The notes under the pieces: generated by a model
Database searches by the model: none
Told to the model about the DNA's origin: nothing
Seen by the model: the letters and a program-made list of their open reading frames with translations, nothing else
Source: Eledone cirrhosa
Lineage: Eukaryota
NCBI GenBank assembly: GCA_964016885.1
Contig: OZ024741.1
Location: 317,192,001-317,256,000 of the forward strand
Reading direction: 5' to 3'
DNA length: 64,000 bases
Translations under genes and position numbers: made by a program
In this document: positions 11,562-64,000 of the stretch, one piece after another
Layout: each line of letters begins with the position of its first letter
Numbering within the stretch: position 1 is the stretch's first letter

Positions 11562-11740
11562 AATAGTTCTAAAACAGCTGGCAACAGAATTCCCAGTTCT
11601 GCGTGTCGGAAGGTAGTAAAACCGATGAAGAAAGACGAGAACAAGAGGGGTGTATTGGACGATTTCAGACTCATCTCAGCTAAACATACAGTTTAAGATC
11701 TTGACCAAGGTGTTAGCAATGAGGTTGGCGCTTGTCATCG
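11562..11740 (+). mobile_element. Short decayed RT fragment related to the Tx1 family at 49.5-64 kb
   Basis: Reads WQQN...KKDENKRGVLDDFRLIS...KILTKVLAMRLALVI, matching WQQNGRIP...RKDENKGDEISNFRPITL...KILVKVLAKRLAL of the array. Confidence 0.75.
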
Positions 11741-21668: not shown

Positions 21669-22771
21669 ATTTATACACGTAACATGTATTGCGCTACCTT
21701 AGGTTTCAAGGTTTAAGTATAGTAAACAATTCACATTTAAACAAGGGCCATATCCCTTAGAAAGTTGATCAACAGATTTTCCGAGTTACAGCCCCTTTCC
21801 TGCATAGGAATTTATAAAGAGATCTCGTTCAGACATTTACTTTGCGCCCGATGACATATGCCTAAGTCTTGCACTGCTGCTTTATACATTCTGCTTAAAG
21901 TAGCGCGATGCATGTTACGTGTGTGTCAATCATATATATATCAATATATATATAGTAAATGAGTGAAGAATAACGTGGTCGGCTGTACAATAGGGTTTAT
22001 TCAAAGTATTAACAATTGTTTCATTTGTCTGGTGTGTCTATATATATATGAGGGGGGTTCGCTTTGTATTAGCGAGAAATACAGGACATTACAGGGCTTA
22101 AAGTCACCCAATAGATATCTGAACAATAAGACAGGGGTGTTCCGAAAATGGCCACATATGAACGCACACGTTGTCTGTGCATTATTACTGACTTGCGGAG
22201 TGGTGTTGAACCACTATTATCGCGTGTAGGACGGATCCTGATAACGACCGTGTCCACCGTGGAGATCATCCCGCTGCCTTCTTTTAGCCGGAAAGGGCAG
22301 GCAGTTTTCCTCAGCCTGGAGGCTGTAGCAAAAGAGATTGTATATGCTGGACAAAGCTGAAAGAACTGAAGACAGAAACTTCCTCTTCGGTCAAGCCCTC
22401 ATCAACCTTTTCAAGTTCCATTTGTAAAGAAAGTGAAGTGGAAAGGGAAGTGCTGTCTCCCAGCACATTTGTTAAAAGGTGAGTGTATGTAGCGAGGGTG
22501 GCCTGTGTGAATGGGTCTACTCTGACCATAGGCTTGAAGGCTGGCTAGTTTGTAGAGGAGAGGGGCGCCTTCCTAGAGTGCTCTTGGAGAGTTTAGGATT
22601 TGTGTTATTCGGGTGTCATTCGTCAGTGTTACTCCCTTTTATTGTGGAATTTTCATTATCTGTTATCTTTTTTAATTCGATTTATTTGTAAACCTCCACT
22701 GTCCCTATCGTTTGTATAGTCCTACATGTTTCGGACTTCATGGCCAATAAACAAATAATAGTAATTATTAT

Positions 22772-49136: not shown

Positions 49137-49232
49137 GAACCAGTAAGACTCCGACGGCTGAGCTCAAGCCGTTTCGACGGCGAATTAGCCGTCGAAACGG
49201 CTTGATCTCAGCCGTCGGGGTCTGACTGGTTC
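49137..49232. repeat. Isolated GC-rich hairpin with ~45 bp arms
   Basis: GACTCCGACGGCTGAGCTCAAGCCGTTTCGACGGC-GAATTA-GCCGTCGAAACGGCTTGATCTCAGCCGTCGGGGTC. Confidence 0.9.
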
Positions 49233-49264
<32 letters not shown>

Positions 49265-49749
49265 GCCTCTGCCAGATGGCTGGAACAGGTAAAGGGTAAA
49301 AGAATATATATATATATTTATACAAATACATTGCACGCATGAATGTACTTGTATGAATGCGTGTGTATATCTGTACGTGTGTGTGTGTGTGCATGTGTAC
49401 CCGCACGCTTCTTGATCCATCATCATTTAACAACAGTCTCATGCTTTACAAATTGTCTTAGCTTCAACATAAGAGGAAATCCATATTACAAGATGTGATA
49501 AGTAGGAAATATAGATAAATTTCTATTTATTTGCCACGAGGGCACAAAAGAAGGGGACAAATACACAGTGGGGGAGTTTACATAAATCGAGTAAAGAAAA
49601 AAGGAATAACAATAATAATATAATAATAAAAAGTCCTCAAAAGGGAGGGGGCGTGTTGGGGATTGCACATAGCCCCGAAAAGTGTGCAACCCTTTTCGCG
49701 GGGGAAGCCCAGAGAGGAGGCGCTCCCCCTTTCCTCTTCACTTCTTCAC

Positions 49750-52700
49750 CTACAGAACAATGTAGAGAGAAGGCCCATTTACACGAGCCATTCTCGCTTC
49801 TTTCACCCACCTTTCATAAAACTGTCTGGGGCCAAGCACTTCTCTCTCCATCCTGATCCTTCTTCCGAAGTGGTATCGGAAGAAGTAAACCAGGTGATGG
49901 CCGGAGAGAAAATCACCCGACCTCAGACCTTTCAGGCGCGTCCACCACACAACCTCTTTCATCATGGCTATTACGCACAGAAAGACCGCCTCTGCTTTAT
50001 TTCTGAAGGGCTTGAAGTTCACCACAGACTCTGCGGTTAATCGAATCGGCGCCACACGCGACAGCAGTCGTTCGACGTAGCCCCACAGATCGGCAACGCC
50101 CGGGCAGTGTACCAGTGCATGCGCAACGGTTTCCTCGTCGCGCACGCATCTGGGACAGATCTTTTTCGCTGGATCCCTGCCCGGGCGCCCGTGTCTGTAG
50201 AGCTTTTCTTGAACGGGCAGAGCCTCCCGGTAACACTGCCAGGCTAGGGACCTCTGGAAGTTGTCCATGGGTCCCGGGCCGAAAGTTCTACCGAACAGGC
50301 TGGCCAGTTCGTTCTCCTCCATGCCTAGCGAGTCTCCAAGGGTGTCGTCGCCCCTGCTAGCCACCAGCCCTCTATAGAATGTCGAGGTGGATTCTCCACT
50401 GATAGTCGGGTCCGCTTGCCAGATAGCCGTGAGCGCCTGGGCACACTCGGTGTGCCAGTTGCCCAGTTTTCTCGGTCTTTGCTTCACCCAGGATTGCAGT
50501 TCGGTGAGCGAGACGAGCTGTGGGAAGGCTCGCCTCACAAACGGGGCCCACACCGGCTGACCGTTGAGGAATACCTGTAGATGCCGTAGCCTCAATGCGT
50601 GCCTACGCATCAACAGCCACGGCATACCCAGCCCTCCTTTCGAAGGGTGCTGGCAGCAGATGGATCTCCTCACCATGGGAGGCCTCTTCTTCCAGAGGAA
50701 CTGGAAGAGCATGCGTTCCATGATGGTGATCTTTTCCTTGGGGCAAGGCACGACGGTCAGGCGGTAGTAGATGACGGACACTATGTAAGCGTTCGCCACC
50801 TCCGCCCGACCTTTCAGTGATAGTTTGCACTTGGTCCACTTCTGGGTCAGCGCAAACACCCTGCTCGTCACCTCGCCCCAATTCTTCTCCACCTGGAGGT
50901 CCGGTCCGAACCAGACCCCGAGCAGCTTCACTGGGCCCTCCGTCCACCGCCCGACGACACCGTCTAACGGCATCGGTTTGCCCCTCCACGTTCCGAGTTG
51001 CAAACCGACTGACTTGTCCTGGTTCAGCCTAGCCCCCGTCAGCCTTTCGTATTCCTCCAGTAGGGTGGCGATCGCCCCGATTTCCGAGGCGTCCGCCACC
51101 ATTACTGTTACGTCGTCGGCATAGGCCGAGACCGCTTTGTGCAATCCCGGTTCCAGGGGTATGCCCCGCAGCAACTCCAACTTCCGCAGCAGTGGCTCGA
51201 GAGTCAATACGTACAGAAGGGAGGAGAGGGGCACCCCTGTTTGATGGACCGGGTGATTTGAAACGGCTCCGAGAGGTAGCCGTTTACTTTAATCCTAGAG
51301 TAGATGTTGCCACTGTGCATGGCAGAAATCCAGCCCCTGAAAACGGGTCCGAAGCCCGCCGCCGTTAGCACCGCATCCAGGTAACCATGGTCGACCCTAT
51401 CAAACGCCTTAGATTGATCCAAGTTGATCAGGGCCCCACCAAAGCCGGGTTCGTTGCCAACCCTCTCTACGATGTATCGCATGAGGTGGAGGTTGTCGTG
51501 AATGGACCTGGACGGGATAGCGCATGACTGCGCGTCTCCCACCAAACCACCCACCACAAGCGCCAACCTCTTCGCCAACACCTTGGCCAAAATCTGTAAC
51601 TCTGCATTCAGCAGAGTTATGGGCCTAAAGTTACTTAAGTCGTCCCCCTTGCTCTCGTCCTTCCTCACTAGTGTGACCACGCCCTTGGTCACAGAACAGG
51701 GAATTCTCCCGTTCTGTTGCCAGTTGCAATAGACAGCCTCGAGGAGTTCGGAGAACAAGACCGGCATAGCTAAATAAAGTTCGTATGGTAGACCATCGAG
51801 ACCCGGGGATTTGCGTCTGCTGCATTGGCTGAGCGCTTCCCCGATTTCAGTGGCTGTGATTGGCCTTTCGCACTCCGCTTCGCCGCTCGAAAGACGCGGT
51901 AGACCGTCGAGATATGGACCGAAGTCCACATCCCCGTCCGGCCCCCCGCCCCCTCCGAACAGTCGAGCAATGTGCCTTTGAAAGGCCTCGCACATCCGCT
52001 CAGGTTCAAGGATCACCTGTCCATCCTGGTCTCGCAAAGACCGAATGGTGGATTTAATCCCACTATTGGCTTCTGTCACGCGGGCCCAGCTAACAGCTTT
52101 GGTCCCCTCGATTCCTAAAGCACGTATTTTACTTCGGACAACGCAGCCTTCGTGCTTCGCGTCAAAGAACTGGTTCAATGCCGTTCTCGCCGCTAACACT
52201 CTGGCCACATCTCCGCTCCTAATCGCCTCTTCTAGTTTATCTGTTAACTCCCTTTCCATCCTATTTCTATTCGCCGCTAGTTCCTTACTGTAACCTATCG
52301 AACTTACTCTAATCTCTCTCTTTAGAGATACCCACCACCTGCTGTTGACGATCGCTCCCGTCAACCGCATCTTAACTAAGCTACTAATCCGGTTCCTGTA
52401 ATCTTTCTTTGCCGACAAGGACAAGTTGATCTTCCAGTAACCGGGACCCTGTCTATGCGTTCTATCAAGGTTGACGACGCAGGTCACTAATTTGTGATCT
52501 GAATAGCCAACCATGATCAATTCTGGACAACTAAATACGTCCCTATCCTTACTCCTAACCAAAAACCTATCTAGGTACGATCTAGATTGTCCACTGCGGT
52601 TTGCCCAGGTCCAGGTTGGCGCAGTTGGACAATCTAGTCGAAATCTATCGACCAAGTCGAATCGATCGAGTAACCCCTTGAGGCTGCTACACCCCCCTCT

Positions 52701-53170
52701 ATCGGGATATGCCCCTGCATAGTCCCAACGCGCTTCTAGGATTCCATTCCAGTCCCCCACTAAAAGCAGGGAACGCGACGTTCCTAGAAAAGTCTCCAGA
52801 CGCTGGAAGAAGTCGGCTCTTTCAGCCCCGAAGGGGGCATAAAGACCGACCAATCTGAAAGCCCCGCCTTCACCGCCTCCGACGTCCAGCACCAGTAATC
52901 GACCCCCCGGGTCCGAGTGAACAATCTGTACGTCGAGAGTCAGACGTTTATCCAGCAGTACGGCAACTCCCCCCCCCCCCCGCCTCCGGGTTGACAGAGA
53001 GATGCGTGCATCTCAAAGTCATCGAAGGCGGGCGCCAGCTGTCGCACGCTGCTGATCCGACTCTCGCAAACAACCATCACATCTATACTTCGTGACCTGA
53101 GGTCACTTAGAAGCTTTGCTTGCTTCCAAGCTGAGCCCAGGCCACGCGCGTTCAAACAGCCAACTCTCAA
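49750..53170 (-). pseudogene. ORF2 of copy 1 (APE endonuclease + RT + CCHC), frameshifted at ~52975 and ~51230
   Basis: CLNARGL, GDWN, YLDRF, YSDH, KSPGLDGLP, LDQSKAFDRV, QGCP, YADD, CPRC...ETVAHALVHC. Confidence 0.92.
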
Positions 53171-53175
53171 TTGAT

Positions 53176-55040
53176 CTATTTTGGTGTTGAAAGTGAAGAA
53201 AGAAAAGCACCTACCTCTCCGGGTTGTGTAATTTCCATGGCGTCAGGTGTGTTGGGTGGAGGGATGTTTTGTGGTGGTGTGGGGGTACCCGAGTGTGGTG
53301 GGGTTGGGGTATTTGGAGTTGTGTCAGGGAGAGGGGAGGTTAAGGGGAGATCTTTCAAGAGGACGCGATTTAACGGTTTTAATTTAAACAGGGGGGGGGG
53401 CTCACCTCCTGTCTAAATTGTTCTTTTAAGGAACGATAAAGGTCCAGAGGGACCTTTATCGTTTTTAAATGGGTGAAGTTCTCTGTTGAGATAAAGTTTG
53501 GCCCTTCGGTCTGCACCAAAGGGCTATTGTTTATTAATTTAAACAGTTTTTTGTTTTCTTTATTTATATATGTGTATTGCAACGTCTTTTTGTGTGATGC
53601 TGTCAATGTTTCGGAGAGGGGAGGCGCAGATTTAATTTTGTTTGTTGAGGGTGGGGTGTTTTTGATTGGAGTTGGTGTTTGTGTGTGGGTTATTTGTGGT
53701 GTGCTGGGTGTGTGCTTTCTTTTTTTTCTTTTAACTTGTCTGAAGGCTTCTCCTCCTTCTTCTTCAGAAGTTGGGGGAAACTCTTCAGCGCTAGGTGGGA
53801 GGGACGTGGTGTCTGGTTGTTTTTTTTTTGCGGGAGGGGTAGATTTGTTGCTGTTTTTTTTATTATTTGTTTGGAATGCGTTTTGTGGTGGTGGTGGTGA
53901 TGTTTGTGTCGTGCTTGTGGTTGGTGATGGTGGTGGTGATGTTTGTGTTGTGGTTGGTGATGGTGGTGGTGATTTTTGTGTCGTGCTTGTGTTTGGTGCT
54001 GGTGGTGGTGATGTTTGTGTTGTGCTTGTGGTTGGAGGTGTCAGTATTTTGTTTGCTGTGTGTGGTATTAGTGTATTTTTGGAGGTGGGTGGTGTTGGTG
54101 TTCTGTTTGTGGTGGGTGTGGGCAATAGTCCTTTTTGGGGGATACGTTTCGGGCAGTTAGCCTTAACGTGTCCCCTTTCCGTGCATAAATAGCATGCTGG
54201 TCTTCTCCCCTCTACAATTATATCTATTGTGGTGAGGTCATCCAGCCAGATTCGATCCGGGATTTGTGCCACTCTTTCGGGCCTCATTTGGACTAGTAGG
54301 TCGAGGCCCATTCCCAGGAACGCATCTCCAGATGCCTTCCCCATTGACAGCACTGTGTCCTCGCCCATGTCTATGAAGCCAGCAATAGCCCACCAGAAGT
54401 CCATTGTGGGCAGCATTGTTTGTACTTTGACTCTCTGTGTTCTTCTACCCATGTAGGAGGGATAGAAGCTGTATGTTGTTGATGAGAGTGGGCTTAGGGA
54501 AAGCTTCTGCGCCGTTTCCTTGTCTTTTGTTAAGACCGAAATGCTGCCATAGAGTCGGTCCTTTCGTATGAAGAGAATATTCTTCATATAGTCTTTTAGG
54601 ACCAACTCTATCTCCATTTGGCTGTGCTGTGCTGGCTTTCTCGTTTGGTTTAATATTGTTCTGAAGAGAACTGTGCTCTCTGTTCTCGCTTTCTTGAATT
54701 CTGGGGGGGGGGGGGGGTTAATGGAAAACATTCCGTTCTCCCCCAAGACTATGTGTTTTTTTGCTTCTGCCAGTTTTTCTCTGGCGGCAGTTAAGTCTAT
54801 TGGTGTATATGTTATGGACTGTTTTGTTTTCTGGGCGAAAGTTGCCTTGTTGTTATTTGTGTTCTTATTTTCTGTTTGTTTGTTTTCCATTTACTCATTT
54901 TCCGTAACATTTGTTTTTTTCATTTTCCTTGTTTGTTTCGTTTCTAGTTTTGTTGTATCTATTTCTTTTTGTTCTTCAGACTGGGGGGGGGGGGGCGTGG
55001 CAGAGCTAATGGCAGACATGTCTGCCATCTTTTCCGCCAT
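53176..55040 (-). pseudogene. ORF1 of copy 1 (gag-like, CX2CX4HX4C), with an in-frame TAA at 54891-54893 and a frameshift near 53380
   Basis: CYLCTERGHVKANC and Pro/Thr-rich repeats. Lesions identified by comparison with the intact copy 2. Confidence 0.88.
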
Positions 55041-55240
55041 GCTACCAAGAAAGAGATTTTACAGCAAAATAGATATTTATTTTACCCCCTAAAAAGGGGG
55101 TAAATGTAAAAATGTCTCCCTAAATAACAGGGGCAAGTGTTTCAAATATGTTGCACTGAAAAAATTCTCTGGTACTTACTATAGTAAGGGTTAATTCCGA
55201 TGGAATAGCGGAGCCGATGTGAAGCGTGTCTTACTCTATC

Positions 55241-55242
<2 letters not shown>

Positions 55243-55298
<56 letters not shown>
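55243..55298. repeat. (GATA)14 joining Tx1 copies 1 and 2
   Basis: Pure tract with no other spacer. Confidence 0.98.
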
Positions 55299-55299
<1 letters not shown>

Positions 55300-55530
55300 A
55301 TTTCTATTTATTTGCCACGAGGGCACAAAAGAAGGGGACATTTACACAGTGGGGGAGTTTACATAAATCGAGTAAAGAAAAAAGGAATAACAATAATAAT
55401 ATAACAATAAAAAGTCCTCAAAAGGGAGGGGGCGTGTTGGGGATTGCACATACCCCCGAAAAGTGTGCAACTCTTTTCGCGGGGGAAGCCCAGAGAGGAG
55501 GCGCTCCCCCTTTCCTCTTCACTTCTTCAC

Positions 55531-58500
55531 CTACAGAACAATGTAGAGAGAAGGCCCATTTACACGGGCCATTCTCGCTTCTTTCACCCACCTTTCATAA
55601 AACTGTCTGGGACCAAGCACTTCTCTCTCCATCCTGATTCTTCTTCCGAAGTGGTATCGGAAGAAGTAAACCAGGTGATGGCCGGAGAGAAAGTCACCCG
55701 ACCTCAGACCTTTCAGGCGCGTCCACCACACAACCTCTTTCATCATGGCTATTACGCACAGAAAGACCGCCTCTGCTTCATTTCTGAAGGGAGGAGGCGG
55801 CTTGATGTTCACCACAGACTCGGCGGTTAATCGAATCGGCGCCACACGCGACAGCAGTCGTTCGACGTAGCCCCACAGATCGGCAACGCCCGGGCAGTGT
55901 ACCAGTGCATGCGCAACGGTTTCCTCGTCGCGCACGCATCTGGGACAGATCTTTTTCGCGGGATCCCTGCCCGGGCGCCCGTGTCTGTAGAGCTTTTCTC
56001 GAACGGGCAGAGCCCCCCCGGTAACACTGCCAGGCTAGGGACCTCTGGAAGTTGTCCATGGGTCCCGGGCCGAAAGTTCTACCGAACAGGCTGGCCAGTT
56101 CGTCCTCCTCCATGCCTAGCGACTCTCCAAGGGTGTCGTCGCCCCTGCTAGCCACCAACCCTCTATAGAATGTCGAGGTGGATTCTCCACTGACAGTCGG
56201 GTCCGCTTGCCAGATAGCCGTGAGCGCCTGGGCACACTCAGTGTGCCAGTCGCCCAGTTTTCTCGGTCTTTGCTTCACCCAGGATTGCAGTTCGGTGAGC
56301 GAGACGAGCTGTGGGAAGGCTCGCCTCACAAACGGGGCCCACACCGGCTGACCGTTGAGGAATACCTGTAGATGCCGTAGCCTCAATGCGTGCCTACGCA
56401 TCAACAGCCACGGCATACCCAGCCCTCCTTTCGAAGGGTGCTGGCAGCAGATGGATCTCCTCACCATGGGAGGCCGCTTCTTCCAGAGGAACTGGAAGAG
56501 CATGCGTTCCATGATGGTGAGCTTTTCCTTGGGGCAAGGCACGACGGTCAGGCGGTAGTAGATGACGGACGCTATGTAAGCGTTCGTCACCTCCGCCCGA
56601 CCTTTCAGTGATAGTTTGCACTTGGCCCACTTCTGGGTCAGCGCAAACACCCTGCTCGTCACCTCGCCCCAATTCTTCTCCACCTGGAGGTCCGGTCCGA
56701 ACCAGACCCCGAGCAGCTTCACCGGGCCCTCCGTCCACCGCCCGACGACACCGTCTAACGGCATCGGTTTGCCCCTCCACGTTCCGAGTTGCAAACCGAC
56801 TGACTTGTCCTGGTTCAGCTTAGCCCCCGTCAGCCTTTCGTATTCCTCCAGTAGGGTGGCGATCGCCCCGATTTCCGAGGCGTCCGCCACCATTACTGTT
56901 ACGTCGTCGGCATAGGCCGAGACCGCTTTGTGCAATCCCGGTTCCAGGGGTATGCCCCGCAGCAACTCCAACTTCCGCAGCAGTGGCTCGAGAGTCAATA
57001 CGTACAGAAGGGAGGAGAGGGGGCACCCCTGTCTGATGGATCGGGTGATTTGAAACGGCTCCGAGAGGTAGCCGTTTACTTTAATCCTAGAGTAGATGTT
57101 GCCACTGTGCATGGCAGAAATCCAGCCCCTGAAAACGGGTCCGAAGCCCGCCGCCGCTAGCACCGCATCCAGGTAACCATGGTCGACCCTATCGAACGCC
57201 TTAGATTGATCCAAGTTGATCAGGGCCCCACCAAAGCCGGGTTCGTAGCCAACCCTCTCTATGATGTATCGCATGAGGTGGAGGTTGTCGTGAATGGACC
57301 TGGACGGGATAGCGCATGTCTGCGCGTCTCCCACCAAACCACCCACCACAAGCGCCAACCTCTTCGCCAACACCTTGGCCAAAATCTGTAACTCTGCATT
57401 CAGCAGAGTTATGGGCCTAAAGTTACTTAAGTCGTCCCCCTTGCTCTCGTCCTTCCTCACTAGCGTGACCACGCCCTTGGTCACAGAACAGGGAATTCTC
57501 CCGTTCTGTTGCCAGTTGCAATAGACAGCCTCGAGGAGTTCGGAGAACAAGACCGGCATAGCTAAATAAAGTTCGTATGGTAGACCATCGAGACCCGGGG
57601 ATTTGCGTCTGCTGCATTGGCTGAGCGCTTCCCCGATTTCAGTGGCTGTGATTGGCCCTTCGCAGCACTCCGCTTCGCCGCTCGAAAGACGCGGTAGACC
57701 GTCGAGGTATGGACCGAAGTCCACATCCCCGTCCGGCCCCCCGCCACCTCCGAACAGTCGAGCAAAGTGCCTTTGAAAGGTCTCGCACATTCGCTCAGGT
57801 TCAAGGATCACCCGTCCATCCTGGTCTCGCAAAGACCGAATGGTGGATTTAATCCCACTCTTGGCTTCTGTCACGCGGGCCCAGCTAACAGCTTTGGTCC
57901 CCTCGTTTCCTAAAGCACGTATTTTACTTCGGACAACGCAGCCTTCGTGCTTCGCGTCAAAGAACTGGCTCAATGCCGTTCTCGTCGCTAACACTCTGGC
58001 TACGTCTCCGCTCCTAATCGCCTCTTCTAGTTTATCTGTTAACTCCCTTTCCCTCCTATTTCTATTCGCCGCTAGTTCCTTACTGTAACCTATCGAACTT
58101 ACTCTAATCTCTCTCTTTAGAGATATCCACCACCTACTGTTGACGATCGCTCCCGTCAACCGCATCTTAACTAAGCTACTAATCCGGTTTCTGTAATCTT
58201 TCTTTGTCGGTAAGGACAAGTTCATCTTCCAGTAACCGGGACCCTGTCTATGCGTTCTATCAAGGTTGACCACGCAGGTCACTAATTTGTGATCTGAATA
58301 GCCAACCATGATCAGTTCTGGACAACTAAATACGTCCCTATCCTTACTCCTAACCAAAAACCTATCTAGGTACGATCTAGATTGTCCACTGCGGTTTGCC
58401 CAGGTCCAGGTTGGCGCAGTTGGACAATCTAGTCGAAATCTATCGACCAGGTCGAATCGATCGAGTAACCCCTTGAGGCTGCTACACCCCCCTCTATCGG

Positions 58501-58965
58501 GACATGCCCCTGCATAGTCCCAACGCGCATCTAGGATTCCATTCCAGTCCCCCACTAAAAGCAGGGAACGCGACGTTCCTAGAAAAGTCTCCAGACGTTG
58601 GAAGAAGTCGGCTCTCTCCGCCCCGAAGGGAGCATAAAGACCGACCAGTCTGAAAGCCCCGCCTTCACCACCTCCGACGTCCAGCACCAGTAATCGACCC
58701 CCCGGGTCCGAGTGAACAATCTGTACGTCGAGAGTCAGACGTTTATCCAGCAGTACGGCAACTCCCCCCCCCCCCCGCCTCCGGGTTGACAGAGAGATGC
58801 GTGCATCTCAAAGTCATCGAAGGCGGGCGCCAGCTGTCTCACGCTGCTGATCCGACTCTCGCAAACAACCATCACATCTATACTTTGTGACCTGAGGTCA
58901 CTTAGAAGCTTTGCTTGCTTCCAAGCTGAGCTCAGGCCACGCGCGTTCAAACAGCCAACTCTCAA
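55531..58965 (-). pseudogene. ORF2 of copy 2, broken only at two G homopolymers (58764-58776 and ~56013-56019)
   Basis: A 969-aa open segment with APE and RT motifs, plus N- and C-terminal pieces in adjacent frames. Confidence 0.9.
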
Positions 58966-58970
58966 TTGAT

Positions 58971-60806
58971 CTATTTTGGTGTTGAAAGTGAAGAAAGAAA
59001 AGCACTTACCTCTCCGGGTTGCGTAATTTCCATGGCATCAGGTGTGTTGGGTGGAGGGATGTTTTGTGGTGGTGTGGGGGTACACGTGTGTGGTGGGGTT
59101 GGGGTATTTGGAGTTGTGTCAGGGAGAGGGGCGGTTATGGGGAAATCTTTCAAGAGGACGCGATTCAACGGTTTTAAACAGGGGGGGCTCACGTCCCGTC
59201 TAAATTGTTCTTTTAAGGAACGATAAAGGTCCAGAGGGACCTTTATCATTTTTAAATGGGTGAAGTTCTCTGTTGAGATAAAGTTTGGCCCTTCGGTCTG
59301 CACCATAGGGTTATTGTTTATTAATTTAACCAGTTTTTTGTTTTCTTTATTTATATATGTGTATTGCAACGTCTTTTTTTGTGATGCTGTCAATGTTTCG
59401 GAGAGGGGAGGCGCAGATTTATTTTTGTTTGTTGAGGGTGGGGTGTTTTTGATTGGAGTTGGTGTTTGTGTGTGGGTTATTTGTGGTGTGCTGGGTGTGT
59501 GTTTTCTTTTTTTTCTTTTAACTTGTCTGAAGGCTTCTCCTCCTTCTTCTTCAGAAGTTGGGGGAAACTCTTCAGCGCTAGGTGGGAGGGACGTGTTGTG
59601 TGGTTGTTTTTTTTTTGCGGGAGGGGTAGATTTGTTACTGTTTTTTTTATTATTTGTTTGGAATGGGTTTTGTGGTGGTGGTGGTGGTAATGTTTGTGTC
59701 GTGCTTGTGGTTGGTAATGGTGGTGGTGATGTTTGTGTTGTGGTTGGTGGTGGTGATTTTTGTGTCGTGCTTGTGTTTGGTGCTGGTGGTGGTGATGTTT
59801 GTGTTGTGTTTGTGGTTGGTGGTGTCTGTATTTTGTTTGCTGTGTGTGGTATTAGTGTATTTTTGGAGGTGGGTGGTGCTGGTGTACTGTTTGTGGTGGG
59901 TGTGGGCAATAGTCCTTTTTGGGGGATACGTTTCGGGCAGTTAGCCTTAACGTGTCCCCTTTCCATGCATAAATAGCATGCTGGTCTTCTCCCCTCTACA
60001 ATTATGTCTATTGGGGTAAGGTCATCCAGCCAGATGCGATCCGGGATTTGTGCTATTCTTTCGGGCCTCATTTGGACTAGTATGTCGAGGCCCATTCCCA
60101 GGAACGCATCTCCAGTTGCCTTCCCCATTGACAGCATAGTGTCTTCGCCCATATCAATGAAGCCAGCAATAGCCCACCAGAAGTCCATTGTGGGCAGCAT
60201 TGTTTTTACTTTTATTCTTTGTGTTCTTCTACCCATGTAGGAGGGATAGAAGCTATATGTTGTCGACGAGAGTGGGCTTAGGGAAAGCTGAACCGCCGTT
60301 TCTTTGTCTCTTGTTAGGACCGAAATGCTGCCATAGAGTCGGTCCTTTCGTATGAAGAGAATATTCTTCATATAGTCTTTTAGGACTAACTCTATTTCCA
60401 TTTGGCTGGGCTGTGCTGGCTTTCTTGACTGGTTTAGTATAGTTCTGTATATAACTGTGTTTTCTGCTCTGGCTTTCTTGAATTCTGGGGGGGAGTTAAT
60501 GGAAAACATTCCGTTCTCCCCCAAAACAATATGTTTCTTTGCTTCGGCCAGTTTTTCTCTGGCGGCAGTTAGGTCAATTCGTGTGTATGTAATGGATTGC
60601 TTTGTTTTCTGGGCGAAAGTTGCCCTGTCGTTATTTGTATTATTTTCTGTTTGTTTGTTTTCTGTTTGCTCATTTTCCTTAACATTTGTTTTTTCATTTT
60701 GTTTGTTTGTTTCAATGTCTAATTTTGTTGTAATTATTTTTTGTTCTTCAGACTTGGGGGGCGTGGCAGAGCTAATGGCAGACATGTCTGCCATCTTTTC
60801 CGCCAT
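58971..60806 (-). CDS. Intact ORF1p (611 aa from MAEKM): zinc knuckle, TTQTSPPP repeats, basic KRKKRK patch
   Basis: Open frame with first ATG at 60806. Contains CYLCMERGHVKANC. Confidence 0.88.
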   Translation of the reverse strand: MAEKMADMSAISSATPPKSEEQKIITTKLDIETNKQNEKTNVKENEQTENKQTENNTNNDRATFAQKTKQSITYTRIDLTAAREKLAEAKKHIVLGENGMFSINSPPEFKKARAENTVIYRTILNQSRKPAQPSQMEIELVLKDYMKNILFIRKDRLYGSISVLTRDKETAVQLSLSPLSSTTYSFYPSYMGRRTQRIKVKTMLPTMDFWWAIAGFIDMGEDTMLSMGKATGDAFLGMGLDILVQMRPERIAQIPDRIWLDDLTPIDIIVEGRRPACYLCMERGHVKANCPKRIPQKGLLPTPTTNSTPAPPTSKNTLIPHTANKIQTPPTTNTTQTSPPPAPNTSTTQKSPPPTTTQTSPPPLPTTSTTQTLPPPPPQNPFQTNNKKNSNKSTPPAKKKQPHNTSLPPSAEEFPPTSEEEGGEAFRQVKRKKRKHTPSTPQITHTQTPTPIKNTPPSTNKNKSAPPLSETLTASQKKTLQYTYINKENKKLVKLINNNPMVQTEGPNFISTENFTHLKMIKVPLDLYRSLKEQFRRDVSPPCLKPLNRVLLKDFPITAPLPDTTPNTPTPPHTCTPTPPQNIPPPNTPDAMEITQPGEVSAFLSSLSTPK

Positions 60807-61009
60807 GCTGCCAAGAAAGAAATTTTTCGGCAAAAATAGATATTTATTTTACCCCCTAAAAAGGGGGTAAATGCAAAAATGTTTCCCTAAATAACAGGGG
60901 TTAGTGTTCCAAATGTGTTGCACTAAAAAATTTATCCGGTACTTACAATAGTAAGGGTAAATCCCGATGGAATAGCGGAGCCGATGCGAAGCGTGTCTTA
61001 CTCTATCAA

Positions 61010-61037
61010 GATAGATAGATAGATAGATAGATAGATA
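61010..61037. repeat. (GATA)7 joining Tx1 copies 2 and 3
   Basis: Pure tract with no other spacer. Confidence 0.98.
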
Positions 61038-64000
61038 AGTTTCTATTTATTTGCAACGGGGACACAAAAGAAGGGGACAAATACAAGGGGGGAGTTTACA
61101 TAAAGGAACGAGTAAAAACCAAATATAAAATATAAAATTAACAATACAGTCCTTAATAGGGATGAGGCGTTTTGGGGGTTACACACACCCCCCGAAAAAG
61201 TGTGCAACCCTTTTCTTTCGGAGCACAGAGAGGGGGTGCTCCTTTGCACTTCCACCTTTCCACCTACAGGCTGATAAAGAGAGAAGGCCCATTCACACGG
61301 GCCATTCTCGCTACTTTCACCCACCCAGAGAAAGGTGTCCGACCTCAGCCCTTTCAAACGTGTCCACCATACCACCTCTTTCAACATGGCTATTACACAG
61401 AGGAAGACCGCCTCTCCTTCATTTTTGAAGGAGGGAGGCGGCTTGATCGTTACAATGGACTCAGTGGTCAACCGGTTGGTCCCACCCGTGACAGCAGTCG
61501 TTCGCCATAGCCCTACAGATCGGCAATGCCCGAGCAGTGTACCAATGCGTGCGCAACGGTTTCCTCGTCGCGCACGCATCTGGGACAGATTTTTTTCGAG
61601 GGGTTCCTACCCGGGCGCCCGTGTCTGTAGAGCTTTTCTCGAACGGGCAACGCCCCTCGGTAGCACTGCCAGGCCAGGGACTTCTGGAAGTTGTCCATAG
61701 GTCCCGGGCCAAATGTCCTCCCGAATAGGCTGGCCAGTTCGTCTTCCTCCATGCCTAGGGCTTGTCCGAGGGCGTCGTCGCACCTACTAACCACCAGCCC
61801 TCTATAGAATGACGAGGTGGAGTCTCCACTGATAGCCGGGTCCGCCTGCCAGAGAGCCGTGAGCGCCTGGGAACAGTCGGTGTGCCAGGCGCCCAGTTTT
61901 CTCGGTCTTTGCTTGACCCAGGACTGCAGCTCGGTGAGCGAGACGAGTCTCGGAAAGGCTCGCCTCACAAACGGGGCCCACACCGGTTGACCGGTGAGGA
62001 ATACCTGGAGGTGCAGTAGCCTTAATGCGTGTTTACACATCAACAGCCACGGCATCCCCAGCCCTCCTTTCGAAGGGTGTTGACAACAGATGGATCTCCT
62101 CACCAAAGGAGCCCGCTTCTTCCAAAGGAATTGGAAGAGTGCGCGCTCCATTTTGGTGAGCGTTTCCCTTGAGCAAGGCACGACGGTCAGACGGTAATAG
62201 ATGACAGACGCTATATAAGCGTTCGCCACCTCCGCCCGACCTTTCAGGGATAGTTTGCACTCAGCCCACTTCCGCGTCAGCGCAAACACCCTGTTCGATA
62301 CCTCACCCCAGTTCTTCTCCACCTGGAGATCTGGCCCGAACCAGACCCCGAGCAACTTCACTGGGCCCTCCGTCCAACGTCCGACGACGCCGTTGGAGGC
62401 CATCGGTTTGCTCTTCCACTCGCTGAGTTGCAAACCGACTGACTTGTCCCGGTTCAGCTTAACCCCTGTAAACGTTTCGTATTCCTCCAGTAAGGTTCCG
62501 ATCACTCCGATTTCCGAGGCGGTTGACACCATTACTGTCACGTCATCGGCGTAGGTCGACACCGCTTTCTGCAATCCTGGTTCCAAAGGGATACCCTGTA
62601 ACAACTCCAACTTCCGCAGCAGTGGCTCTAGGGCCAATACATGCAGAAGGGAGGAGAGAGGGCATCCCTGTCGGATGGACCGCGTGATTTCGAACGGCTC
62701 CGAGAGGTAGCCGTTCACCTTGACCCTAGAGCAGATGCGGCTGCTGTGCATGGCAGTGATCCAGCCCCTGAAAACGGGTCAGAAACCTGCCGCCACTAGC
62801 ACCGCATCCAGGTAACCATGGTCGACCCTATCGAACGCCTTATATTGATCCAAGTTGATCAGGGCCCCACCAAAGCCGGGTTCGTTCCCAACCCTCTCTA
62901 TGATGTATCTCATGAGATGGAGGTTGTCGTGAATGGACCTGGACGGGATGGCGCATGTTTGCGCATCTCCCACCAGGTTGCCCACGTCAAGCGCCAACCT
63001 CTTTGCTAACACCTTGACCAAAATCTTTAACTCTGCATTTAGCAGTGTTATGGGCCTAAAATTACTTATTTCATCCCCCTTGTTCTCGTCCTTCCTCACT
63101 AGCGAGACTACGCCCTTGGTCACAGAACAGGGAATTCTCCCGTTCTGTTGCCAGTTGCAGTAGACCGCTTCGAGGAGATCGAAGAACAAGTGCGGCATAC
63201 TTAAATACAGTTCGTATGGAAGACCATCGAGGCCCGGAGATTTTCGTCTGCCGATTTGGCTCAGCACGTCCCCTATTTCAGCAGCTGAGATCGGCCTCTC
63301 GCAGGACTTCGCCTCCTTGTCCGAAAGACGCGGCAGGCCGTCGAGGTATGGACCGAGGTCCACATCCCCATCCAGCCCCTCGTCCCTTCCGAACAATCGG
63401 GCAAAGTGCCTTTGAAAGGCCTCGCACATCTGCTTAGGTTCAAGGATCACCCGTCCATCCTGGTCTCGCAAGACCGAATAGTGGATCTAGTCCCACTTTT
63501 GGCTTCTGTCACGCGGGCCCAGCTAACAGCTTTGGTCCCCTCGTTTCCCAGAGCACGTATTTTGCTTCGGACAACGCAGCCTTCGTGTTTCGCGTCGAAG
63601 AACTGGCCCAAGGCCGTTCTCGACGCTAGCACTCTGGCCACGTTGCCGCTTCTAATTGCCTCTTCTACACTATCTACCAACTCCCTTTCCTTCCTATTTC
63701 TATCTGAGGCTAACGCCTTACTAACTCCTATTGAAACTACTCTAATCTCTCTTTTGAGAGAGCCCCACCACCTGCTGTTGACGATGGCGCCAGTCAACCG
63801 CTCCTTAACTAAAGTGCTAATCCTGTCCCTGTAAGCCTTACTTGCCGGTAAGGACAAGTTGAGCTTCCAGTAACCGGGTCCCTGTCTATGCGTTCTATCA
63901 AGGTTGACCATGGAGGTCACTAACTTGTGGTCTGAATAGCCAACCATGAGCATTTTTGGACAACTTAAAAAGTTCCTATCCTTATTTCTAACTAAGAACC
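61038..64000 (-). mobile_element. Tx1-clade LINE copy 3: diverged subfamily, decayed ORF2, runs off the window
   Basis: Homologous ORF2 with many substitutions, stops (~61513, ~62779), a frameshift at ~63470 and a deletion at ~61330. Same 3' terminus next to GATA. Confidence 0.93.

Follow-up and report, generated by a model that had tools for sequence, protein, structure and literature searches.

Results

Structure of the Array

The window (the whole stretch of 64,000 nucleotides that was analysed) contains a head-to-tail array of LINE copies separated by TATC tracts, which runs to the last base of the stretch. Read on the minus strand, which is the element strand, the order is copy 3-(TATC)7-copy 2-(TATC)14-copy 1-TATCTAT-unique flank; copy order, tracts, and the TATCTAT remnant had been given correctly, base for base, in the first-pass annotation. 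The features are as follows.

49511..49517, minus strand: TATCTAT, right-hand remnant of the original target tract, beside the unique flank (sequence)
49518..55242, minus strand: full-length copy 1 of 5725 nt, from an older sublineage within the young family, with frameshifts in ORF1 and ORF2 (sequence comparison)
49526..49531, minus strand: AATAAA of copy 1, 8 nt ahead of the TATC junction, no poly(A) (sequence)
49750..53242, minus strand: ORF2 of copy 1 (APE endonuclease, RT, zf-RVT), spread over three frames (ORF and domain search)
53176..55040, minus strand: ORF1 of copy 1 (CCHC knuckle), frameshifted (ORF and domain search)
55243..55298, minus strand: (TATC)14 = (GATA)14, spacer that joins the 3′ end of copy 2 to the head of copy 1 (sequence)
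55299..61009, minus strand: full-length copy 2 of 5711 nt, from the youngest subfamily and more recent than either neighbour (difference counts)
55307..55312, minus strand: AATAAA of copy 2 (sequence)
55531..59037, minus strand: ORF2 of copy 2, shifted at two homopolymer runs, without ATG ahead of the endonuclease motifs (ORF and domain search)
58971..60806, minus strand: ORF1 of copy 2, an open frame of 611 aa with a single CCHC knuckle and a C-terminal half rich in Pro/Thr (ORF and domain search)
60996..61015, minus strand: head junction TCTATC-TT-GATAGA, target inverted onto the other strand; same at the head of copy 1 (sequence)
61010..61037, minus strand: (TATC)7 = (GATA)7, spacer that joins the 3′ end of copy 3 to the head of copy 2 (sequence)
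61038..64000, minus strand: copy 3 (= unit D), which belongs to an older lineage, has a 5′ end of its own, and extends 2684 nt beyond the window (sequence and neighbouring DNA)
61046..61051, minus strand: AATAAA of copy 3 (sequence)

The 5′ junctions of copies 1 and 2, described at first pass as base-identical, do share TCTATC followed by TTGATAGAGTAAGACACGC. All three 3′ ends read AATAAA-TAGAAA(T/C)T-TATC without an A-run, again as described, and the other GATA/TATC runs of the window reach 2 units only, in agreement with the statement that it holds no other long (GATA)n. Small decayed fragments of the same clade are found at 11586-11735 and 22184-22530, without TATC tracts of at least 3 units. 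A long inverted repeat (GACTCCGACGGCTGAG ... CTCAGCCGTCGGGGTC) was also seen at 49150-49225, some 280 nt away from the array; it lies inside a short repeat that has TA tracts on both sides.

The three copies first described are present, but they make up about half of the array, which comprises six units. In the neighbouring 12.4 kb (G000:C2) copy 3 is completed to full length, with a 5′ end of its own, and three further units follow, so that the whole array in element order is flank, 6 repeat units, A, (TATC)7, B, (TATC)8, C, a short tract, D (= copy 3), copy 2, and copy 1. Unit A is full length and 98.7% identical to copy 2, unit B is a 5′-truncated copy of 785 nt (63%), and unit C a truncated copy of 3.1 kb (76%). 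Altogether, six co-oriented units from four lineages, 63-99% alike, occupy 27 kb. Copies 1 and 2 are 95.8% identical to each other; copy 3 shows about 86% identity over ORF2 and 79% at the 3′ end.

The nearest relative of copy 1 among 41 other full-length copies differs from it at 123 sites. Between copy 2 and a copy on another contig (C1) there are 4 differences, compared with 58 to unit A and 188 to copy 1, and no private variants common to the array's three young-family copies were found. Considering that the nearest relative of copy 2 lies on another contig and that private variants are not shared, the insertions in the window were independent. This agrees with the earlier proposal of serial insertion rather than tandem duplication. 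Units B, C, and D and copy 1 would have been the earliest, with copy 2 arriving later between D and copy 1 and unit A upstream of B.

Coding Capacity and Classification

The domain search on an intact natural copy detected Exo_endo_phos (1.8e-11), RVT_1 (5.4e-24), and zf-RVT (2.8e-5), and the catalytic endonuclease motifs were all retained. The best solved relative of ORF2 was human L1 ORF2p (PDB 8sxt, 8uw3; E 5e-47 over endonuclease and RT), compared with 2e-21 for R2, in a comparison where few clades have solved structures; the endonuclease matched structures of L1-EN and L1-EN loop chimeras. The element has an N-terminal APE endonuclease, an RT, and a C-terminal zinc motif, lacks LTRs, and presents 5′ truncations at many positions and duplications of 13-22 nt in a minority of copies. 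Judged by these sequence features, it is an APE non-LTR retrotransposon of the L1 superfamily and likely a member of the Tx1 clade; the ORF2 domains and the similarity to L1 ORF2p support the L1/Tx1-type anatomy recognised at first pass.

In ORF1 the domain search gave one CCHC (E 0.008, below the curated cut-off) and no Transposase_22. RRM/CCHC and ZCCHC3-like clusters of the Atlas came up at 0.90-0.92 as leads only, and the fold predicted without an alignment was unusable (pLDDT 35). A type I ORF1 (RRM plus CCHC), not Transposase_22, is tied to Tx1 (PMC5203782), and the ORF1 described here may fit this type, with the RRM as a lead only. None of the relatives returned by the sequence searches was a named Tx1 sequence, and a metagenome scan with a 42%-identical relative gave no match.

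Both ORFs were open in 11 of the 42 full-length copies examined. The frameshifts of copies 1 and 2 lie partly at homopolymers and may be due to mutation or to sequencing error. The 3′-terminal 54 nt occur exactly 393 times in the genome, which corresponds to about 400 near-identical young copies, and some of these differ at just 1-8 of 5700 sites; the youngest subfamily has therefore been active very recently.

In the young family ORF2 has no ATG ahead of the endonuclease motifs, the first Met being residue 56 of the open frame (58961-59037 and 53166-53242 of the window, minus strand). An ATA overlaps the ORF1 stop in the −1 frame, at the place where copy 3 has ATG. The missing start codon points to putative non-AUG reinitiation or frameshifting. 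Splice-like signals were also seen on either side of ORF2: at the end of ORF1 (near 59010, minus strand), GAG followed by GTAAGT or GTAGGT in 41/42 copies, and at the ORF2 stop (near 55531, minus strand), a pyrimidine tract and TAG followed by GTGAAG in 42/42.

Target Specificity in the Genome

The host genome has 3.0 Gb and is rich in TA and CA repeats. Exact heads were preceded by TCTATC in 540 of 568 cases, and in the lineage of copy 3, which has a different head, a TATC 8-mer was found upstream of 29 of 30 heads. Because a repeat at a head may belong to the element itself, specificity is judged better from truncated copies. For lineages B, C, and D we took the 30 best matches out of 2077, 982, and 1694 candidates, respectively, which gave 90 copies, and 58 of them had a 5′ junction inside the 1.5 kb analysed. 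The automatic junction call placed TATC at 27 of these 58; once 11 internal deletions, whose upstream side is element, had been dropped and the junctions set by hand, 32/47 older truncated copies had TATC upstream. As background we used 40 evenly spaced 10-kb samples, where a TATC 8-mer lay within 25 nt upstream of 3258 of 798,000 sampled positions (0.41%), so that chance is excluded. The same samples contained 579 TA, 203 CA, and 20 TATC tracts. TA tracts being 29 times and CA tracts 10 times commoner than TATC, passive survival in repeats is not the explanation.

On the 3′ side, 79 of the 90 older copies ran into TATC and 4 into (TC)n. One sequence type thus occupied more than 20% of flanks, the proportion that defines a target-specific family in PMC4494074, and it was not the (TC)n or (TTC)n that characterises Kibi and Koshi. 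The (GATA/TATC)n specificity claimed at first pass is upheld by these counts; the flanks of truncated copies were enriched in TATC, not random. Its persistence across subfamilies is borne out as well, since TATC stands at both junctions of full-length and most truncated copies in four lineages.

Three further observations concern the sampled loci. A relative about 67% identical (L249:5855-8834, minus strand) ends in AATAAATGAAAGCTT and then (TAG)n, not TATC, and is a sister lineage that may target another repeat. Three lineage-B copies with unrelated flanks (L121, L125, L126) are truncated within 3 nt of one position, 681-684 nt from the 3′ end. Another LINE, which we take from its C-terminal motif to be RTE-like, lies in the opposite orientation and passes straight from its stop codon into (ATAG)n or (TA)n (L232:7574-7900, L246, L235, L080, L119, L130, L244), and is a possible source of new GATA tracts. 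A short TATC-associated element of the background sample was considered as a partner SINE and rejected; it is the 3′ end of this RTE-like LINE, in the opposite orientation.

Frequency of Arrays and Direction of Growth

At least 160 of the 568 heads lay within 34 nt after the 3′ end of another copy, and most of the 100 listed were ends of other lineages. A relative was the neighbour of 24/36 young full-length copies (20 upstream, 17 downstream, 13 both). Two of the 40 background samples fell within arrays, and the clade occupied 22.7 of the 400 kb sampled, with wide scatter.

No signal of misassembly was detected, and the same junction types were found on many contigs. In the raw reads of another organism's run, 39 reads (X15) join a truncated copy via a GATA tract to another 3′ end, which indicates that such junctions are not a product of assembly, these reads lying outside the array described here. 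The array's unique flank was not covered by any of four read runs, so these seem to come from other species. Two loci showed other arrangements: a rearranged cluster at L069-L070 (G000:C25:728000-747999) with repeated 1.7-kb units of ORF1 and ORF2 pieces and TCTG-rich spacers, and L089, with three tandem copies of a 558-nt truncated relative followed by a 246-nt young fragment joined to a 3′ end without TATC between.

The relative ages of neighbours were estimated by comparing each copy with 86 copies, sampled from about 400, and taking the distance to the closest one that did not lie in the same array. The younger copy was upstream in 14 of 19 non-chimeric same-subfamily pairs, a set that includes the outer pair of a trimer and was drawn from short-spacer matches, which favours upstream insertions. 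By spacer, the upstream copy was the younger in 10/11 pairs separated by up to 3 units and in 4/8 with longer spacers. Copy 2 fits this polarity, being younger than copy 1 downstream and than D upstream; A is likewise younger than B. The first-pass annotation had the arrays growing into the element's tail; these ages speak against it, the younger copy usually lying upstream of the older head.

Young copies favour the heads of their own subfamily. Young tails were joined to young heads at 35 junctions in 28 arrays (counted from the list), and at heads of the copy 3 lineage with an upstream neighbour a young tail was found in 0/27, where about 8 would be expected at equal rates (p about 5e-4, with a rough denominator). 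Young 3′ ends are about 1% of the ends of the clade (393 of roughly 37,000, range 7,000-75,000) but 22% of the upstream neighbours at young heads. Template jumping between two RNAs was considered for own-subfamily dimers and is disfavoured where the ages of the partners differ greatly (4 versus 53, 9 versus 52, and 15 versus 70 differences).

The middle copies of four arrays (Q33_2, Q309_3, T228_2, T72_2) are chimeric: their 5′ part is that of the neighbour downstream, their 3′ part that of the one upstream. To judge from these copies, unequal exchange also lengthens some arrays. Among 65 copies, 2 were flanked by perfect duplications of 392 and 769 nt, each enclosing a whole truncated neighbour; over the first 1-1.3 kb these two copies match the full-length copy that comes next downstream, and the remainder comes from another source. 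Either the cDNA may have been finished by pairing with that neighbour, or an ordinary upstream insertion may have recombined with the empty homologue. Long duplications are rare in LINE assays, where one of 1228 bp is described (PMC2666801).

Retention of the 5′ End in the Youngest Subfamily

Most L1 copies are 5′-truncated. On C1 and the first 123 Mb of C2, 57 of 64 exact young 3′ ends had an exact head at a fitting distance, and four further young copies were full length with a variant head, so that the 5′ end was kept in 61/64. In contrast, all 30 best lineage-B matches seem to end within about 1 kb. The bias may reflect efficient 5′ joining or later loss of long copies, both being possible.

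A tentative reading, more likely wrong than right, is that the youngest subfamily evades the 5′ truncation usual for LINEs and seeks out heads of its own kind. The role that we infer for the inverted junction TCTATC-TT-GATAGA would be to let one enzyme cut both strands, and the cDNA would be finished by pairing with the TATC tract or with a neighbour. If true, this would account for the 5′ ends kept, the excess of own-head junctions, and the 392- and 769-nt duplications together.

Origin of the 3′ Tract and Mechanism of Insertion

We consider it probable that this L1-superfamily, likely Tx1-clade, group sits in (TATC)n throughout the genome and stacks there head to tail, likely by nicking of the GATA strand and with TATC left on both sides. 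Beginning from the TATC present at both junctions, a nick just before TAT on the element strand would prime reverse transcription of an RNA with little or no repeat, so the 3′ tract would be mostly target DNA. The 5′ end would then join by pairing with TATC in the upstream target strand, which would explain why there is one fixed register, why duplications vary in length, and why the youngest subfamily has few truncations. The relative ages show that later copies entered both upstream and downstream of earlier ones, and more frequently directly before the older head; the chimeric copies show that exchange between adjacent close relatives can add a third. Stacking probably results from the TATC that remains on each side of an insertion and can serve as a target again.

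The first-pass annotation had proposed that the element makes its own TATC tail and so regenerates its target. In such a scheme every insertion would lay down a new tract copied from a (UAUC)n tail of the RNA, and arrays would grow by insertion into that tail. It would explain why nearly all 3′ ends run into TATC, and 20 of 36 young copies do stand downstream of a relative's 3′ end. With non-repeat markers, duplications were recognised in 5/47 truncated copies (36 informative) and 2/42 full-length copies (22 informative), as well as in L241 by eye; shuffled pairs gave a mean of 0.4 and a maximum of 3 in 300. A target duplication of fixed length was looked for and not found. Those of 13-22 nt in L114, L180, L186, and L188, and also in L241 (by eye), begin at the last base of the element, with no extra TATC. 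Of the five truncated cases, all but the ambiguous L155 have a duplication that begins with TAT at the last base, as do L241 and both R17 copies. Allowing offsets of up to 100 nt gave three more short matches, all in degenerate repeat. Seven copies have no TATC after the 3′ end (L241, L183, L186, L130, L147, L151, L173) and lie off target in TA, TC, or unique DNA. Considering both the duplications that start at the last base and these off-target copies, the tract looks mostly target-derived, retained on both sides, rather than copied from an RNA tail.

Against this, the majority of informative copies show no duplication, about 11/47 old truncated copies have TATC at the 3′ side and none upstream (two of them with at least 8 pure units), a pattern that a tail carried by the RNA would account for as well, and several young copies have a longer pure tract on the 3′ side than on the 5′ side. 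The RNA may contribute a few repeat units. As the source of the whole tract, however, a UAUC tail is unlikely, since some young copies are followed by a tract of just 4-7 nt and the younger copy is mostly the upstream one.

Less probable still is that the endonuclease has no specificity, and that repeats at the RNA or cDNA end pair with broken or slipped TATC tracts, or that copies merely survive in harmless repeats. The truncation joints agree with pairing: 17/45 had at least 2 bases of TATC microhomology versus 12.6% in simulation (p = 2e-5), the joints having passed from 115 to 72 scored and to 45 after cleaning by hand. Microhomology at 5′ joints is known for LINEs (PMC2666801). The fixed register of the heads and the duplications that often could not be resolved point the same way. 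However, the commoner TA and CA tracts mean that passive survival would not single out TATC, the endonuclease keeps its catalytic motifs, the clear duplications all begin at TAT, and the endonuclease of Tx1L is sequence-specific in vitro (PMC1950540).

That the arrays are tandem duplications or assembly artefacts is hardly credible, even with unequal exchange in the four chimeric arrays and the triplicated fragment of L089, and was rejected for the array described here on its diversity of lineages, the differences between units with no private variants in common, and junctions that recur on many contigs and in another organism's raw reads.

Discussion

The type of mechanism is known from Tx1 microsatellite specialists and R1 arrays, while the (TATC)n target appears to be new and was not found described. 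Microsatellite targets on record are ACAY, AC, TC, TTC, and TAA (PMC3812793) and TTCC/TTTC (PMC4494074), in the excerpted parts of these papers. No LINE targeting TATC/GATA was found in the open literature; Repbase, Dfam, and the target lists in the supplement of PMC4494074 lie outside that search and may bear on novelty. The annotation of Octopus vulgaris records 13 recently active L1-Tx1 families, whose targets are unnamed in the excerpt (PMC13282606).

The closest parallels are Kibi in (TC)n and Koshi in (TTC)n of teleosts and the crocodilian Tx1 elements in (TTCC)n/(TTTC)n (PMC4494074, PMC3812793), which are likewise APE LINEs of L1/Tx1 type in a pyrimidine-rich microsatellite. The elements described here differ from them in the (TATC)n target, the invertebrate-like host, and arrays that unite several lineages and reach six or more units, the kinship being a putative one drawn from anatomy. 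SINEU-3 also forms tandem insertions, sandwiching a target duplication, by sequential Tx1-driven insertion at a regenerated target (PMC4494074), but there a SINE enters a DNA-transposon target, whereas here autonomous LINEs enter a microsatellite. In R1 of Drosophila, a double insertion is followed by unequal exchange (PMC5932611), and the chimeric middle copies correspond to this route; R1 belongs to another clade and has an rDNA target with a fixed 33-nt spacer, in contrast to the spacers of 1-14 repeat units and the dispersed sites found here. The SaTar elements of guayule and rice similarly build non-nested linear arrays of different elements by targeting a microsatellite (PMC5907723), although they are non-autonomous Mu-like DNA transposons. 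Human L1 differs in its poly(A) tail, its loose TTTT/AA target, and its Transposase_22 ORF1.

The more surprising part is the full-length bias together with the own-head preference of the youngest subfamily, and above all the near-complete retention of 5′ ends would surprise a specialist. If the tentative explanation given above were true, the subfamily would serve as a model, provided by nature, of gene insertion by an APE-type LINE that is precise, full-length, and directed to a repeat.

The molecular basis of microsatellite targeting by APE-type LINEs has been called not well understood (PMC3812793, excerpt). The present group is a useful system, with a simple target, abundant near-identical young copies, both ORFs open in about a quarter of the full-length copies examined, and sister lineages that seemingly use other repeats; given these features, the specificity determinant is directly testable. 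With the share of sampled DNA that it occupies, the clade shapes the genome and will disturb GATA microsatellite markers and assembly.
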